Below, one piece after another: positions 34,796 through 64,000 of a stretch of 64,000 nucleotides of DNA. Location: IMG/VR virus record IMGVR_UViG_3300030320_000049. One strand, written 5' to 3'. Position 1 is the stretch's first letter; every line of letters starts with the position of its first letter. A program made the translations under genes and the position numbers. The notes beneath the pieces were generated by a model. That model was not told the origin of the DNA. It searched no databases and saw nothing but the letters and a program-made list of their open reading frames with translations. This DNA is from a virus.

Positions 34796-34922
34796 AACAG
34801 CTTCGGCGGTGGGCTGTTAACCCCTCGATTGTCGTTACGCCGCCACAAATAAGCATTTTAAAAGCCCCGGGATGATTTCCAAGGGCTTTTTCTTTTGGTT
34901 GGGGCGATTGTTCGCCCCTTTT
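34796..34922 (+). ncRNA. Candidate about 125-nt sRNA with three hairpins and tandem terminators
   Basis: TTAACAGC(34794-801)/GCTGTTAA(34813-820). AAGCCC/GGGCTT followed by TTTTTCTTTT (34862-34896). GGGGCGA-TTGT-TCGCCCC followed by TTTT (34901-34922). Confidence 0.45.
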
Positions 34923-34924
34923 GG

Positions 34925-35083
34925 TTATTCGTTTTCCTTCGTGGTTTCTTTGAGCAGTCCGGCTGAGTGTTTACGGATTTCGTTGTTCATTTCTCGGACT
35001 TCCTCAATGGTTTCGCATTTGTCTGTCGCTGTTGTGATCAACCAAGCAATAAACTGTAACTGTTTGTCTGTCATGTTCTCCAT
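34925..35083 (-). CDS. hypothetical (52 aa from MENMTDKQ)
   Basis: RBS AAAGGAGAAAAA before ATG 35083; directly downstream of a consensus promoter. Confidence 0.4.
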   Translation of the reverse strand: MENMTDKQLQFIAWLITTATDKCETIEEVREMNNEIRKHSAGLLKETTKENE

Positions 35084-35132
35084 TTTTTCTCCTTTCTGTG
35101 GTTTATAAGGTTCTTTGTTCCTTACAAGTATT

Positions 35133-35161
35133 ATTATATCTCTATTTTTAGTGATTGTCAA
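35133..35161 (-). promoter_or_regulatory. Consensus promoter TTGACA-17-TATAAT (leftward)
   Basis: Complement of 35161-35156 is TTGACA and of 35138-35133 is TATAAT. The spacer is a copy of the 16-mer TCTCTATTTTTAGTGA (35139-35154). Confidence 0.6.
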
Positions 35162-35411
35162 TATTTTGTTCACATATTTTAGAGATTATTTTTTCTCTAT
35201 CGTTGTCTGTTTCAACATATTTTATAATATCTCTAGGTTGCATTTCAAGAACGGCACAAAGTCTATTCAAATTGTCTAAAGAAATCGTTGTGTCTCCTTT
35301 TTTAAATTTTTGCATTGTAGCTTGTCCGAAAAGCCCTGTATTTTTAGCTTTTGTGGTATTTATACCGACTTTTGCAAGCTCTTCTATAACATTAATTTTA
35401 TATTGTAGCAT
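35148..35411 (-). CDS. XRE-family HTH repressor (CI/Cro-like)
   Basis: GQATMQKFKKGDTTISLDNLNRLCAVLEMQPRDIIKY; divergent from the plus-strand operon. Confidence 0.8.
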   Translation of the reverse strand: MLQYKINVIEELAKVGINTTKAKNTGLFGQATMQKFKKGDTTISLDNLNRLCAVLEMQPRDIIKYVETDNDREKIISKICEQNIDNH

Positions 35412-35443
35412 TTGTTTTCCTCCTAATCTTTTACTTTATATAT

Positions 35444-35472
35444 AATGTAGCTTTTTTAATGCTGATTGTCAA
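35444..35472 (-). promoter_or_regulatory. Weaker leftward promoter TTGACA-17-TACATT for the repressor gene
   Basis: Complement of 35472-35467 is TTGACA and of 35449-35444 is TACATT. Confidence 0.4.
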
Positions 35473-35481
35473 GAATATTTT

Positions 35482-35528
35482 TCTCTATTTTTTGTGAATT
35501 ATATGTTGACATTCTCTAATTTTAGTGA
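35482..35528 (+). promoter_or_regulatory. Two operator-like 16-mers TCTCTATTTTTTGTGA / TCTCTAATTTTAGTGA
   Basis: 35482-35497 and 35513-35528; a third copy is at 35139-35154. Two of the three fill promoter spacers. Confidence 0.5.
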
Positions 35529-35534
35529 TATTAT
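35506..35534 (+). promoter_or_regulatory. Rightward promoter TTGACA-17-TATTAT
   Basis: Read from sequence; drives the only plus-strand operon. Confidence 0.55.
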
Positions 35535-35744
35535 AATTACATCAACAAAGGAACAAAAGAAACAAACAACTGGAACCGCCCGAACCACTCAACACAATGA
35601 GGACATAGGGAGCCGGCACCGATTAATTGAAAAATTCTAGTTCCTAGGCAAAATAAAAAAAGCCCGGCAGTCTTCCAAACCAAACCGGGCACCAAACTAA
35701 AAAGAAAGGCAACCCTATTATAACAGGGGTGAGGGTGAAAATCA

Positions 35745-36824
35745 ATGAGTAAATATTTTAAGAGCGTAACAAGTTATCAAGATTTGAAAGATCAGTATAG
35801 AAAACTTTTGAAAGAAAATCACCCGGACAACGGCGGCGACCTGGAACAGATGCAGGAAATCAACGTAGAATACGATGCAATGTTTAAAATCTGGAAAGAT
35901 CGCGCAGCTGTTGCAAATAATCTTTCAGAAGAAGAAAAAACAGAAACCGCAAGAAGCACAAGACGCCATTTTTACAGTGCTTACGGCTGGGAGGGTTCAA
36001 GATACGATGTTAATTTGTCATTAAAAGAGATTGCTAAAATTGTAAGAGCCTATGTAAAAGAAGAATACCCAACTTGCAAATTTAGCATTCGCACTCATTA
36101 CGCAAGTATGTGCCAGTCATTAAGCGTTGATTTGCTGGAATTCCCGGAACAGATGTATAAAACCGCTGCGGAACTTAAAGAAAACTATTATACAGAAAAC
36201 ACGTATATAGATAAAGACGGAAAAACTCAGAGCTACAAAACCATGTCGGAAGAAGTAAACGAGATGTGGAGAAAATTAAATAGAAATAATATTTTTACAC
36301 TTGACAGCTGGACAGATGACGATCTATTGAAATGCTATGAAAAAGTTGTTTTTGAGGAAAACAAATCATTTTTCGGGGTACAAACTGAATATTTTAAAAG
36401 CGTTGTTGATGATGTAAACGCCTTTATTGCTTCTTATAATTACGATGACAGCGACAGCATGACGGATTATTTTGATGTTAATTTCTACGGCGGAGAAGTT
36501 GATTTTAGAAACTGTAAATATGTTCCAAAAGTCGCCAGAATTAAAAAGCAAAATACAGCCCCGGCAGCAAAAGAAAATAAAGAAGAATCAAGCGCCGCAG
36601 AAATTGAAACAAGCGGAAAAGCTTATACAGTGGAAGAAAGCCAGCACACAAAAACAGGCGAAAAGATTTATCTTGTAAAATGGCTCGATACTCTCAGCAG
36701 AGAAAGCTATAAAGAATTAAATAGCCAGATTAAAAAGTTAGGCGGCTATTATTCGAGATTTACACATAGTTTTATTTTTAAAGATGATCCTACCGAAATT
36801 TTGAAAGAGGTAAAAATCGCATGA
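35745..36824 (+). CDS. J-domain (DnaJ-like) protein, 359 aa
   Basis: YQDLKDQYRKLLKENHPDNGGDLEQMQEINVEYDAMFK with the HPD tripeptide. Confidence 0.8.
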   Translation: MSKYFKSVTSYQDLKDQYRKLLKENHPDNGGDLEQMQEINVEYDAMFKIWKDRAAVANNLSEEEKTETARSTRRHFYSAYGWEGSRYDVNLSLKEIAKIVRAYVKEEYPTCKFSIRTHYASMCQSLSVDLLEFPEQMYKTAAELKENYYTENTYIDKDGKTQSYKTMSEEVNEMWRKLNRNNIFTLDSWTDDDLLKCYEKVVFEENKSFFGVQTEYFKSVVDDVNAFIASYNYDDSDSMTDYFDVNFYGGEVDFRNCKYVPKVARIKKQNTAPAAKENKEESSAAEIETSGKAYTVEESQHTKTGEKIYLVKWLDTLSRESYKELNSQIKKLGGYYSRFTHSFIFKDDPTEILKEVKIA

Positions 36825-38162: not shown

Positions 38163-38168
38163 TTTTTT

Positions 38169-38224
38169 ACCGCTTCCCGGTTTCCAGACCGGCGGCACGT
38201 TCACGGCGTGCAAGCGGTTTTTTT
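38169..38224 (+). terminator. tRNA-like three-way-junction terminator (M3)
   Basis: ACCGCTT C CCGGT-TTCCAG-ACCGG CG GCACG-TTCACGG-CGTGC AAGCGGT TTTTTT. Confidence 0.5.
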
Positions 38225-38392
38225 GGCATTCTGCCAGATACACCTTGCAAAGTTAATATAATAAGTCAATCAATTAACGCGCTATTTTATCCGTAAATCG
38301 TTTTTTATGCTGTTAATGGTGATTTATGCCACGTTTGCATTTTAAGCCGATTATGAGCCTTTAAAGCACTTTATAGTGCACTACATGGTTTA

Positions 38393-38421
38393 TTGACTGC
38401 TTGCGGCTATAGGTGTATAAT
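38393..38421 (+). promoter_or_regulatory. Near-consensus orphan promoter TTGACT-17-TATAAT
   Basis: 38393-38398 TTGACT, 38416-38421 TATAAT. No RBS-preceded ORF downstream. Confidence 0.55.
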
Positions 38422-38427
38422 AATCTT

Positions 38428-38940
38428 GTATAGCTATGTGCGGCTATGCTTTATTTGCGTACCGTGTAAATGGGGCGCATTGTGTCCGCTTATGTGCGTA
38501 GCTTGTCCGGGCTTCCCGGTGATCTGTCGCAACTGTCCGGTCTATATATCAATTAGGGCTATACAACTATATTGTGATATGCTTATATACGCCGCATTTG
38601 TCTTTTTAAGTCGTTTTATAATCGCAGTCAATAAAGTATAGGCTAAATACGCTACAAGCCATTTAAGGCTTATTTTGCAAGAGTATTATTGCATTTTTAT
38701 TACTGCATTATATGTCATTTGCTGTTATGATCTATTATCTGCGGGCTGTTGGTTCTGATCTGTCAGAGCTACGGCTGACGGTCGGCTTTACTGGTGTTCA
38801 ATCGTTCCCGGTTCTGTCCAGGTTTCATCATTTCGGCGCGGTATCGGTTCCAGGTGCTATCCCTGGTTGGTTTATACCGGCGGAAAAGTCGCAACTGTTC
38901 AAGGTTTCAATAGTTGCAACTAACTTGTAAACGATTTCCA
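38428..38940 (+). ncRNA. Candidate large structured non-coding RNA (or DNA cis element)
   Basis: About 0.5 kb, appears GC-richer by eye than its surroundings, with no credible ORF. Many local and nested helices, e.g. GGTAT[CCAGG-TGCTATC-CCTGG]ATACC at 38840-38877 and CTGTCAG/CTGACGG at 38760-38780. Confidence 0.3.
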
Positions 38941-39206
38941 AATTTAAACATCATTTTGGAAACCAAAAAATCACGGAAATTAAGAAAAAAAGTGGCAATC
39001 AGAAAATTTCTCACATTTTCTAGTTACCACTTAAATTTTAATTTTGCACAAATATTTCTATAGCGTAAAGTTCTGAATGATTCAAAATTCACAATTTATT
39101 TAATCCTTCTTTCTTACGTGTTCCATATCTTCTGTGAGATGATTTCTCTAAACGTTCCGTCCTCTTTGTTTGGGACTTTGAAAGTTTTTTCTTTCTCTGG
39201 TAATTG

Positions 39207-39875: not shown

Positions 39876-40000
39876 ATTTCGCCCTCCATTTTCTTGAACA
39901 TAACACAATTTCAGAAAAAAGGCAAAAAAAATAATCGCATCTCTGCGATTTTATTATTTTGCACATGTACTTTTCCCTTTCATATGTACTTTTTGTAAAA

Positions 40001-40190
40001 GGTAATCAAAGGTAATCAGAACACTCGTTCATACCAAGTCCGCAAACCCTTGATTTTACTGCATAAATCGGGGCAACAGGATTTGAACCTGCGACCTCAC
40101 GGCTCGCGTTTTAATCCGTAAACCCTTGATTTTAAAGGCTTTCCAGACTTGAGGTAATCAAAGGTAACCAAAAAGGTAATCAGAACCTAT
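40001..40190. mobile_element. attP region: tRNA 3' fragment flanked by arm-type repeats
   Basis: GGTAAYCA x5 at 40001, 40011, 40153, 40163 and 40175. CCGYAAACCCTTGATTTTA x2 at about 40040 and 40115. Lies adjacent to int. Confidence 0.6.
40068..40113 (-). other. 3' portion of a tRNA gene (T-arm plus acceptor 3' strand) = probable att core
   Basis: Minus strand ...GAGGTC GCAGG TTCAAAT CCTGT TGCCCCG A. No matching 5' acceptor strand upstream. Confidence 0.6.
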
Positions 40191-40198
40191 GTTCTTAT

Positions 40199-42550: not shown

Positions 42551-43461
42551 TTGTCCACCTCGCTTACCCTGTTTTGGATTTTCTCCATGTAGCTTTGAGG
42601 CTTGTTGCCGGATTTATCAAGATAGTTCCCTTCAAATACCTTTGCAAAGTTACCGGGCTTTAAGAACCAATCGAAAGTTATCATCCAGCCTTCTTTGTTC
42701 TGCCCTTGTAAGAAGCTGCTATGGCGAATGTTTTCAATGGCTTCTAATATATCGCCCATATGGTTCTGACGGATTCTGGCTTTCACTGCTTGTTCTCGTT
42801 TTGATGTCATTCTTTTTACAGGGTTAATACCAAATTCTTCCAGAGTATTCCATTCATCAATGATTCGTTGGACGTCAGTCTGACGAATAGTATCTTTAGA
42901 TACTATTAAATCATTCTCTTCTTCTATTTCTTTTTCTTTATTATCTAATTCTTTATTATCTAGTTCTTTATTATATACTTCTGCCGAGCTAACGTTAGTT
43001 TTACTGTTAACTTTACCGTAAAGTTTACTGTTAGTTTTACACTCTATTTTGTCTTTCTGCTTTTTTCGATATTCTTGCATATAGTTTCGCATATATTGGC
43101 TTTTTTGCTCAATTTTATCAAGATTTTGATATTTTCCCCAGTTCGGAATTGTGTAAACTCCGGAAACAATTTCGATCATTCCGTAGTTCTCAAATGTTTT
43201 TAACGCTAATCGAACCGTGTTAATATCTCTCCTGAATACTGTCGCTAACATTTCATCAGTATATGCAATCTTATCGTTTAGGATAAAAACACCGCTGTTG
43301 TTATTTTTTCCGGCTAAGCACAACAATTTAAACCAGATTACGATAATGCTATCCGCACTTGGCAAATTTTCAATTAGCATTATTTTTTCATCATCAAAAA
43401 TGTCTGAACATATTTTTATCCATTTTACATCGCTTGCCAATTTTGAAATTCCTTTCTCCAA
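42541..43461 (-). CDS. Phage replisome organiser (N-terminal domain) / DnaD-like
   Basis: VKWIKICSDIFDDEKIMLIENLPSADSIIVIWFKLLCLAGKNNNSGVFILNDKIAYTDEMLATVFRR. Confidence 0.7.
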   Translation of the reverse strand: MEKGISKLASDVKWIKICSDIFDDEKIMLIENLPSADSIIVIWFKLLCLAGKNNNSGVFILNDKIAYTDEMLATVFRRDINTVRLALKTFENYGMIEIVSGVYTIPNWGKYQNLDKIEQKSQYMRNYMQEYRKKQKDKIECKTNSKLYGKVNSKTNVSSAEVYNKELDNKELDNKEKEIEEENDLIVSKDTIRQTDVQRIIDEWNTLEEFGINPVKRMTSKREQAVKARIRQNHMGDILEAIENIRHSSFLQGQNKEGWMITFDWFLKPGNFAKVFEGNYLDKSGNKPQSYMEKIQNRVSEVDNWV

Positions 43462-63533: not shown

Positions 63534-63660
63534 AAAAAATCCTCCTGTTATATTTTTGTTTGTCAAATACAGGAGGTTGTGTTATAATAATCCTGTATTT
63601 AACTAACTCATTCTTAGTTAGATACCGTCCTGGTTGGTGTGTCCGCACCTTCCAGGACAC

Positions 63661-64000
63661 TTAATCTGCTTCTACAAATTTTCCATCTTTCAGCGTATAG
63701 AAAGTATCTTCCTTGATATTTTTCCCATCTACTTTTGCTGATTTAACATCTACAATATGATATTCATGATTGATCTCTTTCCACTCTGCTAAAACAATAA
63801 AACATCCAATTTTTCCTTTAGCTTTTGAATTAATTCCTGTAGCTAATGCAATACTTTCTTTTCCTTCTACAATTGCCGCTGAATAATTTCCGGTATTGGT
63901 TGCCGCTGACTGATTTCCGGTATTGGTTGCCGCTGACTGATATCCGGTATTGGTTGCCGCTGACTGATATCCGGTATTGGTTGCCGCTGACCGATTTCCG
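63661..64000 (-). CDS. C-terminal part of a repeat-containing (beta-helix/fibre-like) protein; N-terminus outside window
   Basis: Own translation ...GNRSAATNTGYQSAATNTGYQSAATNTGNQSAATNTGNYSAAIVEGKESIALATGINSKAKGKIGCFIVLAEWKEINHEYHIVDVKSAKVDGKNIKEDTFYTLKDGKFVEAD*. Confidence 0.6.
   Translation of the reverse strand, partial: GNRSAATNTGYQSAATNTGYQSAATNTGNQSAATNTGNYSAAIVEGKESIALATGINSKAKGKIGCFIVLAEWKEINHEYHIVDVKSAKVDGKNIKEDTFYTLKDGKFVEAD
63873..64000 (-). repeat. 27-nt tandem repeat (4.7 copies visible) encoding nonapeptide SAATNTG(Y/N)(Q/Y)
   Basis: Units start at 63873, 63900, 63927, 63954 and 63981; nearly identical at DNA level. Confidence 0.85.

Follow-up and report, generated by a model that had tools for sequence, protein, structure and literature searches.

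The window analysed here is a stretch of 64,000 nucleotides of viral DNA (IMG/VR record IMGVR_UViG_3300030320_000049), from a temperate gut phage whose host is probably Blautia or another member of the Lachnospiraceae, and our subject is a promoter of the Sigma-70/SigA type (TTGACT-17-TATAAT, plus strand, 38393-38421) that lies in a stretch of 926 nt without a credible open reading frame (ORF; 38163-39088). Judged from related phages, this promoter is real and under purifying selection, and the DNA that follows it is non-coding. Since it is also located near one end of the future prophage, the best reading of the locus in our opinion, held tentatively and with somewhat less than even confidence, is that the promoter drives an independent, untranslated and loosely structured transcript of approximately 0.62 kb, which would end at a hairpin at 38990-39032.

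A conserved promoter and the gene-less DNA behind it

Relatives of the locus, sought by means of the promoter, a 24-mer from its interior and the protein encoded by the nearby DUF4417 gene, were found at 101 loci on IMG/VR gut-phage contigs of approximately 76-90 kb. From these loci 69 distinct versions of the segment 38160-39200 were extracted, which together with the window make 70 versions. The promoter occupies the same alignment position in all 70, and in 69 of them it agrees with the consensus at 11 of 12 positions, as it does in the window. Both TTTATTGACTG and TATAAT are invariant in the relatives, and the spacer between them is fixed at 17 nt and variable in sequence; this combination of invariant hexamers, fixed spacing and a variable spacer is the classical footprint of a promoter. 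The nucleotide diversity (pi) of the promoter is 0.071, as compared with 0.152 at the third codon positions of DUF4417 and 0.208 in the spacer between the integrase gene (int) and DUF4417, which serve here as near-neutral yardsticks. It is because of this invariance, and not because of the 11/12 score, that we accept the promoter as real. A preliminary description of the same DNA, made from the sequence alone, had noticed the near-consensus promoter and placed it just after the terminator of the upstream operon ("M3"); both statements hold, the promoter starting approximately 170 nt after that plus-strand terminator (38169-38224). The predicted start of transcription is near G38428.

The stretch downstream of the promoter is non-coding. 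An ORF preceded by a ribosome-binding site, whose absence had been noticed in the preliminary description, is indeed found on neither strand, and neither strand contains a start or an ORF of at least 8 aa that is preceded by a Shine-Dalgarno (SD) sequence and conserved in at least 10 of the 70 versions, which led us to reject a type I toxin-antitoxin locus. The hypothesis of a hidden protein-coding gene, written in the standard or in an alternative code or consisting of very small ORFs, could invoke the fact that the phage encodes a tRNA with a UCA anticodon, as well as the presence, on the plus strand of some relatives, of open frames of 85-138 aa. The latter, however, fit the A-poor composition of the region, and Pfam contains no match to the longest open frames of the window and of six relatives. 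Alternative codes (code 4 with TGA read as Trp, TAG as Gln, or TAA as Gln) yield no convincing ORF and no SD-preceded start is conserved; no frame is kept among the relatives, the best one (72 aa, 38712-38930) being intact in 4 of the 70 versions and broken at differing places in the others. Moreover, of 308 indel events counted against the window, 280 have lengths not divisible by 3, and the column entropy downstream of the promoter carries no period-3 signal. A hidden gene is thus extremely unlikely.

Phages seldom keep that much non-coding DNA without reason. Here a gene-less unit of approximately 0.9 kb is kept in a family of temperate phages of approximately 80 kb that is abundant in human-gut metagenomes and is represented here by about 100 contigs. 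Of the 101 loci, 99 match the spacer at least partially and 95 match its left flank; the spacer is 0.8-1.1 kb long in all 69 versions with both flanks recovered. The spacer is retained even where the upstream genes have been swapped or where the relative possesses a different integrase/att module. In a subset of relatives, aligned to 39990-40195, the sequence downstream of DUF4417 is wholly different and corresponds to another integrase/att module, and DUF4417, the small gene orf44 that follows it and the spacer are unchanged. One relative (L014, 4700-5480) carries an IS607-like insertion right after DUF4417, which comprises a serine recombinase with a MerR-type helix-turn-helix (HTH) domain and, behind it, the beginning of a TnpB-like ORF, and which replaces the spacer. 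Another (L036, represented by two contigs) has 102 nt inserted in the drifting half of the unit, after the position matching 38841; the insertion, possibly a small mobile element, displays an A8/T-rich motif that resembles a hairpin. The contig of the nearest virus record (G001) stops within DUF4417 and is hence uninformative about the spacer. A blastn search against a phage GenBank collection gave no match, and neither DUF4417 peptides nor an invariant stretch of 33 nt led to a prophage copy in any of 185,579 species genomes.

A second orphan promoter of the plus strand is located at 63560 (TTGTCA-17-TATAAT; region 63560-63660), where it is flanked by a 10-nt inverted repeat and fires into two hairpins and then reaches, in antisense orientation, the 3' end of a minus-strand ORF (ending at 63661). 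It has the 16-mer TATAATAATCYTGTAT and the 9-mer TGTGTCCGC in common with the promoter at 38393, which suggests that the phage may hold a small class of such orphan-promoter units.

Constraint and structure along the predicted transcript

According to the diversity among relatives, the first 260 nt or so of the untranslated transcript (38428-38690, plus strand; pi = 0.094-0.136), including a conserved block at 38596-38690, are moderately constrained, and the approximately 300 nt of the G+U-rich 3' half (38691-38980, plus strand; pi = 0.157-0.201), a mosaic prone to indels, drift nearly neutrally. Natural deletions of 17-236 nt and one insertion are found within 38691-38980 in the relatives L040, L070, L081 and L036.

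Seven local hairpins were tested, of which four are at least 95% paired in the relatives, and among them only two, H1 and H6, look as if they had been selected. H1 (38428-38457, plus strand) is a stem-loop (GUAUAGC...GCUAUGC; hairpin proper 38428-38449, folding free energy dG = -9.6 kcal/mol) followed by UUUAUUUG, and it starts at the predicted +1. In 54 relatives 98.6% of its cells are paired, and the stem is less diverse than the loop (pi 0.043 vs 0.157). The changes in H1 are wobble-compatible on the plus strand only; its G.U pairs, which the opposite strand would turn into C.A mismatches, give the best strand-specific indication of a plus-strand RNA. H1 probably serves to stabilise the transcript at its 5' end. 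H6 (38891-38917, plus strand; GCAACUGUU...AAUAGUUGC; dG = -11.3 kcal/mol, z = -4.35) has 95.7% of its cells paired, with one pair changed from CG to UA in 3 sequences, and is the sole internal helix that exhibits a contrast between stem and loop (pi 0.099 vs 0.226).

We propose that the host SigA-type promoter starts an untranslated RNA near G38428, and that the conserved 5' stem-loop would guard this RNA against 5' exonucleases. The RNA would span approximately 0.6 kb and end most likely at the hairpin 38990-39032 with the U-rich tract UUAAAUUUUAAUUUUG behind it; the unit is bracketed by the terminator of the upstream operon (z = -3.1) on one side and by this hairpin on the other. The predicted end would be common to the converging int-DUF4417-orf44 unit, which uses the hairpin in the opposite orientation as its own terminator (38985-39045, minus strand; a 16-bp stem with U7, dG = -20.1, z = -4.5, consensus z = -4.3). 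Because constraint is confined to the 5' 260 nt, with H1 and several conserved single-stranded blocks, and to H6, the RNA would most likely act through short linear or hairpin elements, whether by base-pairing, by protein binding or by convergent transcription against the neighbouring operon. To our knowledge, almost nothing is known about the regulatory biology of Lachnospiraceae phages, and the role of such a transcript could reveal control of lysogeny or of accessory genes at the level of RNA or transcription.

Several results weigh against this proposal. In this AT-rich genome a promoter match of 11/12 is in itself not beyond chance, as the window contains five such sites versus 3.6 +/- 1.75 in block shuffles. 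The consensus fold of the region is not significant: comparison with refolded alignments, whose columns had been shuffled inside conservation classes, gave z-scores from -1.7 to +1.7 over both strands in seven overlapping segments. This test has power on these alignments, since two control terminators, the upstream one and the minus-strand hairpin, score -3.1 and -4.3 by the same procedure. The changes seen in the hairpins are nearly all one-sided and of the wobble type, and covariation is weak. The neutral diversity of the 3' half and its deletion in some relatives imply that much of the supposed RNA may lack any sequence-specific function. The terminator hairpin 38990-39032 is weaker on the plus strand (dG = -13.2, z = -3.3 in the window) and receives no support there from the consensus fold, so that transcription could leak past it and would then be antisense to orf44 and DUF4417; the low diversity of the segment 38981-39088 (pi = 0.070) is explained by the terminator hairpin of the minus-strand unit. 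Finally, complementarity to targets beyond chance was not found within the 64-kb window, and a search of 301 Lachnospiraceae genomes for host targets returned two matches of 30-39 nt in unrelated sequence, which we judged to be due to chance.

The preliminary description had considered a large lysogeny-expressed non-coding RNA with nested helices, and had suggested a scan of Rfam and an analysis of covariation in related prophages. A promoter-driven non-coding transcript remains the best reading, but its large structured form does not survive these comparisons. At gathering thresholds, Rfam 15 recognizes only tRNAs in the whole window, and at E <= 10 the segment 38100-39300 yields three noise matches of 14-18 bits, as compared with gathering scores of 39-76; no family is matched, with ROOL, GOLLD, OLE, 6S and the riboswitches among those covered. 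The consensus calculated by RNAalifold for 54 versions has only 33 pairs (-16.7 kcal/mol over 553 columns) and a covariation term of -1.5, without a significant fold. As to the helices proposed earlier, 46 of 54 relatives have lost the central pair of CCAGG/CCTGG, and 18 and 30 of them, respectively, have lost two of the GGTAT/ATACC pairs, and two of the four helices are disrupted in the majority of the relatives; taken together, the four have 84.6% of their cells paired versus 84.2% in shuffles, of which 99 out of 500 attain a covariation score as high as the observed one. A crude enumeration of helices, dominated by chance pairings of G/T-rich sequence, was set aside and replaced by the alignment-shuffle z. 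The single-sequence fold of the minus strand has z = -3.6 because of local palindromes, which are not conserved in the relatives. We therefore reject a large structured ("ornate") RNA, since an Rfam match and a conserved consensus fold are both lacking and the relatives do not retain the helices in question. Among the large ornate RNAs associated with phages, ROOL (RF03087) and GOLLD (RF01998) resemble the unit in their size class (approximately 0.5-0.8 kb) and in their association with phages of Bacillota. In contrast to them, the unit has no Rfam match even at E <= 10, no global fold or covariation and no tRNA array beside it, and membership in either family was rejected for want of an Rfam match or a conserved fold.

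Alternative explanations and known systems

Genes for non-coding RNAs (ncRNAs) of the "moron" type are known from prophages, e.g. DicF in Qin, IsrK in Gifsy-1 and AgvB/AsxR in Sp5 of enterohaemorrhagic Escherichia coli, and possess their own promoter and terminator. The unit described here is likewise self-contained from promoter to terminator, without an ORF, situated near a prophage end and kept in the lineage independently of its neighbours. On the other hand, moron ncRNAs are 50-300 nt long, with defined seeds and known targets, whereas this unit measures approximately 0.6 kb, drifts over more than half of its length, has no target that we could find and belongs to a phage of a Gram-positive host. 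It is conceivable, though somewhat unlikely, that the unit is a decaying relic of a lost moron or of captured DNA, in which the promoter persists for the sake of transcription as such. Such transcription could collide with the int-DUF4417-orf44 unit or insulate against it, or it could act as a topology-dependent brake that reaches attP (the phage attachment site) and int only in the circular form, as lambda sib does. The invariance of the promoter in front of a mosaic body, the neutral diversity of the 3' half (0.16-0.20), its frequent deletions and insertions, and the orientation of the promoter, which faces outward at the prophage end and aims at attP 1.6 kb away, agree with this explanation. 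However, constraint extends beyond the promoter to the 5' 260 nt, H1 and H6, and the length of the spacer is kept in nearly all relatives; two hairpin terminators (38990-39032 and 39933-39950) stand between the promoter and attP/int, and, as the frames of the window and of six relatives are without Pfam matches, no former gene has been identified. In phage lambda, sib is a hairpin for RNase III that is read within the int transcript and retroregulates int. The likeness consists in a non-coding element that lies across attP from int and whose relation to int differs between the circular and the integrated genome; unlike sib, the present element has a promoter pointing at attP, is separated from it by two genes and two terminators, and contains no long hairpin of the RNase III type that we could find.

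A more radical idea, which we consider distinctly unlikely, is that the locus represents a new kind of control element, in which a conserved outward promoter, a fast-evolving and largely unstructured RNA of 0.6 kb and a topology-dependent switch are combined, or else that its RNA primes a second origin similar to those of c2 or ColE1. In the version with the switch, transcription would converge on orf44-DUF4417 and then on attP and int only when the genome is circular. If true, this would apply to approximately 100 related contigs, as well as to the relatives with other integrase modules. A transcription-primed origin as such, i.e. an RNA that starts at the promoter, hybridises within the AT-rich segment 38941-39088 and primes DNA synthesis, is in our estimation slightly less probable again. 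In lactococcal Ceduovirus c2 the origin (ori) gives rise to a non-coding transcript from PE1 (PE1-T), which is thought to start replication (PMC7150918). The anatomy of our locus is similar, with an ORF-free location between modules, a strong promoter without a ribosome-binding site, a non-coding transcript (here a predicted one), and greater variability among similar phages than in the adjacent coding DNA (PMC7150918). Nonetheless, the c2 ori is situated where the early and late modules diverge, with a second promoter reading into the early genes, and needs no additional phage functions, whereas here the flanking units are convergent, no gene lies downstream, and the phage has its own helicase loader and a replisome organiser with tandem iterons inside its gene; the comparison is confined to the anatomy.

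In plasmid ColE1 the primer RNA II, of approximately 555 nt, is controlled by the antisense RNA I from a convergent promoter. The comparable features here are a transcript of approximately 0.55-0.6 kb directed toward a conserved AT-rich block and an optional, face-to-face promoter-like site on the minus strand (38603-38635), approximately 200 nt downstream of the main start, which from 38631 would supply the antisense control RNA of a primed origin. In relatives this site reads TTGACT-17-TAAAAT, and its -35 element is a 12-nt inverted copy of TTTATTGACTGC of the main promoter (12/12 complementary). It scores at least 9/12 in 44 of the 70 versions and is missing in the other 26, the window included, where the -10 element is TAAAAA, so that the site is not universal. 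It is also consistent with a primed origin that the non-template strand has more G than C (0.23 vs 0.20) and is followed by a conserved block of 150 bp with 25% GC; the latter, however, is accounted for by the minus-strand terminator. Stem-loops resembling those of RNA I/RNA II were not found to be conserved, and ColE1 is a plasmid, whereas this is an integrating phage. Against any origin in the region it can further be said that it contains no copies of the iterons and that no sequence resembling a DnaA box was noticed by eye, no formal scan having been run.

The remaining possibility, less likely still, is a DNA platform on which a protein of the phage binds to loop the DNA or to silence the promoter, the transcript being incidental. 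Its sites would be the direct repeats YTGTCCNGGCT (38502, 38532 and 38813) and the inverted 12-mer TTTATTGACTGC (38389 and 38624), which is a perfect inverted repeat. The preliminary description had pointed to recurring short motifs, and these do exist, with TGTCCG present three times and TGCGGCTAT and TGATCTGTC twice each, but each of them is weak after multiple testing and their copies vary among the relatives. The three copies of TGTCCG, spaced 21 and 30 bp apart, fall in a 52-nt interval with an expectation of 0.13 copies, and deletions in relatives remove approximately one repeat spacing (21-22 or 30 nt); in addition, the DNA upstream of the promoter is as constrained as that downstream. 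However, TGTCCG is strand-biased genome-wide (18 vs 4), the repeats are short, and neither a candidate binding protein nor ParA or ParB was identified among the scanned proteins. Between the region and the rest of the 64-kb window only chance-level 11-14-mers are repeated. The elevated GC content noted earlier is confirmed for 38428-38940 (0.429 vs a window mean of 0.376, standard deviation 0.033), although the excess is mild (96th percentile).

Attachment site, replication origin and neighbouring genes

The description of the region as "next to attP" is loose: attP is at 39998-40185, approximately 100 nt after the int stop, and orf44 and DUF4417 intervene. The region is located 1-1.6 kb inside one future prophage end, with the promoter pointing outward. 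Within attP there are four arm-type repeats AGGTAATC in two clusters (40000, 40010, 40152 and 40174), a duplicated AAACCCTTGATTTTA (40045 and 40120), and a core (approximately 40070-40105) whose reverse complement corresponds to the 3' end of tRNA-Pro(GGG). An exact copy of the 29-nt core is present in at least 120 bacterial genomes, among which Blautia and other Lachnospiraceae are numerous, and is the 3' end of tRNA-Pro(GGG) in both Blautia genomes checked, which points to the host clade as well as to the integration site. In Blautia faecis DFI.3.66 the same core fragment lies approximately 107 nt after an integrase of 58% identity, and no complete tRNA was called there. Arm repeats, a tRNA core or adjacency to int have no counterpart within 38393-38940, and we rejected the region as attP since all three are found at 39998-40185.

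The gene of the replisome organiser contains tandem iterons in an array region at 42917-43040, namely 3.3 copies of a 15-nt unit (TTCTTTATTATCTAA) and 3.9 copies of a 12-nt unit (GTTAATTTTACT), in arrays at 42934-42982 and 42994-43040. Iterons inside the organiser gene mark the usual position of the origin in phages of the SPP1 type, and this array is the probable origin of the phage. None of the iterons recurs in 38163-39088 with up to 2-3 mismatches, and an iteron-type origin (SPP1 gene 38 type) in the region was rejected because the repeats lie in the organiser gene. The cis elements that the preliminary description had listed as candidates thus find no positive evidence: the iterons of an ori are elsewhere, ParA and ParB, the partners of a parS, did not turn up among the scanned proteins, and terS/terL, with regard to pac, are more than 6 kb away. 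Taken together, the observations made in that description are partly confirmed and its interpretation is partly supported. The negative results remove the locus from the candidate large structured RNAs, attP sites and origins, and attP, the host tRNA-Pro target and the likely origin are placed elsewhere in the genome.

The spacer is flanked on the left by the only plus-strand operon of the phage (35745-38162), which encodes a J-domain/LPD29 protein and several small genes. The operon is ended by the intrinsic terminator "M3" (38169-38224, plus strand; hairpin and U-run), for which consensus folding of 39 distinct versions on the plus strand gives E = -19.9 and z = -3.1, and whose pi is 0.059; this terminator forms the left edge of the gene-less DNA. 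Between it and the promoter extends a conserved AT-rich spacer (38225-38392) without an ORF or a conserved fold (alignment-fold z = -0.7 on the plus and +0.6 on the minus strand; pi = 0.119, measured over 38231-38384). It includes short inverted repeats and may hold sites for regulators. On the right lies the minus-strand unit, composed of the tyrosine integrase (41509-40199), the DUF4417 gene (39908-39207) and orf44 (39223-39089). The latter, which forms the right edge of the non-coding spacer and overlaps the DUF4417 stop, encodes a highly basic protein of 44 aa (MGTTTDNYQRKKKLSKSQTKRTERLEKSSHRRYGTRKKEGLNKL). With a diversity of 0.019, 0.015 and 0.110 at codon positions 1, 2 and 3 among relatives, it bears a coding signature and is a genuine small gene; an extension of DUF4417 by TGA read-through was rejected, because the codon-position pattern identifies the conserved frame as orf44. 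The literature assigns no function to DUF4417 and mentions it only for its frequent fusion to ParB-CTPase folds in phages. Comparison of the neighbouring proteins with PADLOC and PDB gave nothing useful.

Nearly all the remainder of the 64-kb window is transcribed from the minus strand, including the genes of the replisome organiser, the helicase loader, SSB and a methylase. The probable genetic switch is located at 34900-35540, where a Cro/CI-type HTH gene (35411..35148, minus strand) lies amid very strong promoters, i.e. one with a 12/12 consensus match at 35161 (minus strand) and a divergent back-to-back pair at 35472 (minus strand) and 35506 (plus strand). The IMG/VR contigs of several relatives end at positions matching approximately 35400-36200. 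At the right end of the window (63873-64000), a minus-strand ORF that runs off the window contains 4.7 copies of a 27-nt tandem repeat (TTGCCGCTGACTGATATCCGGTATTGG) with 95% matches.

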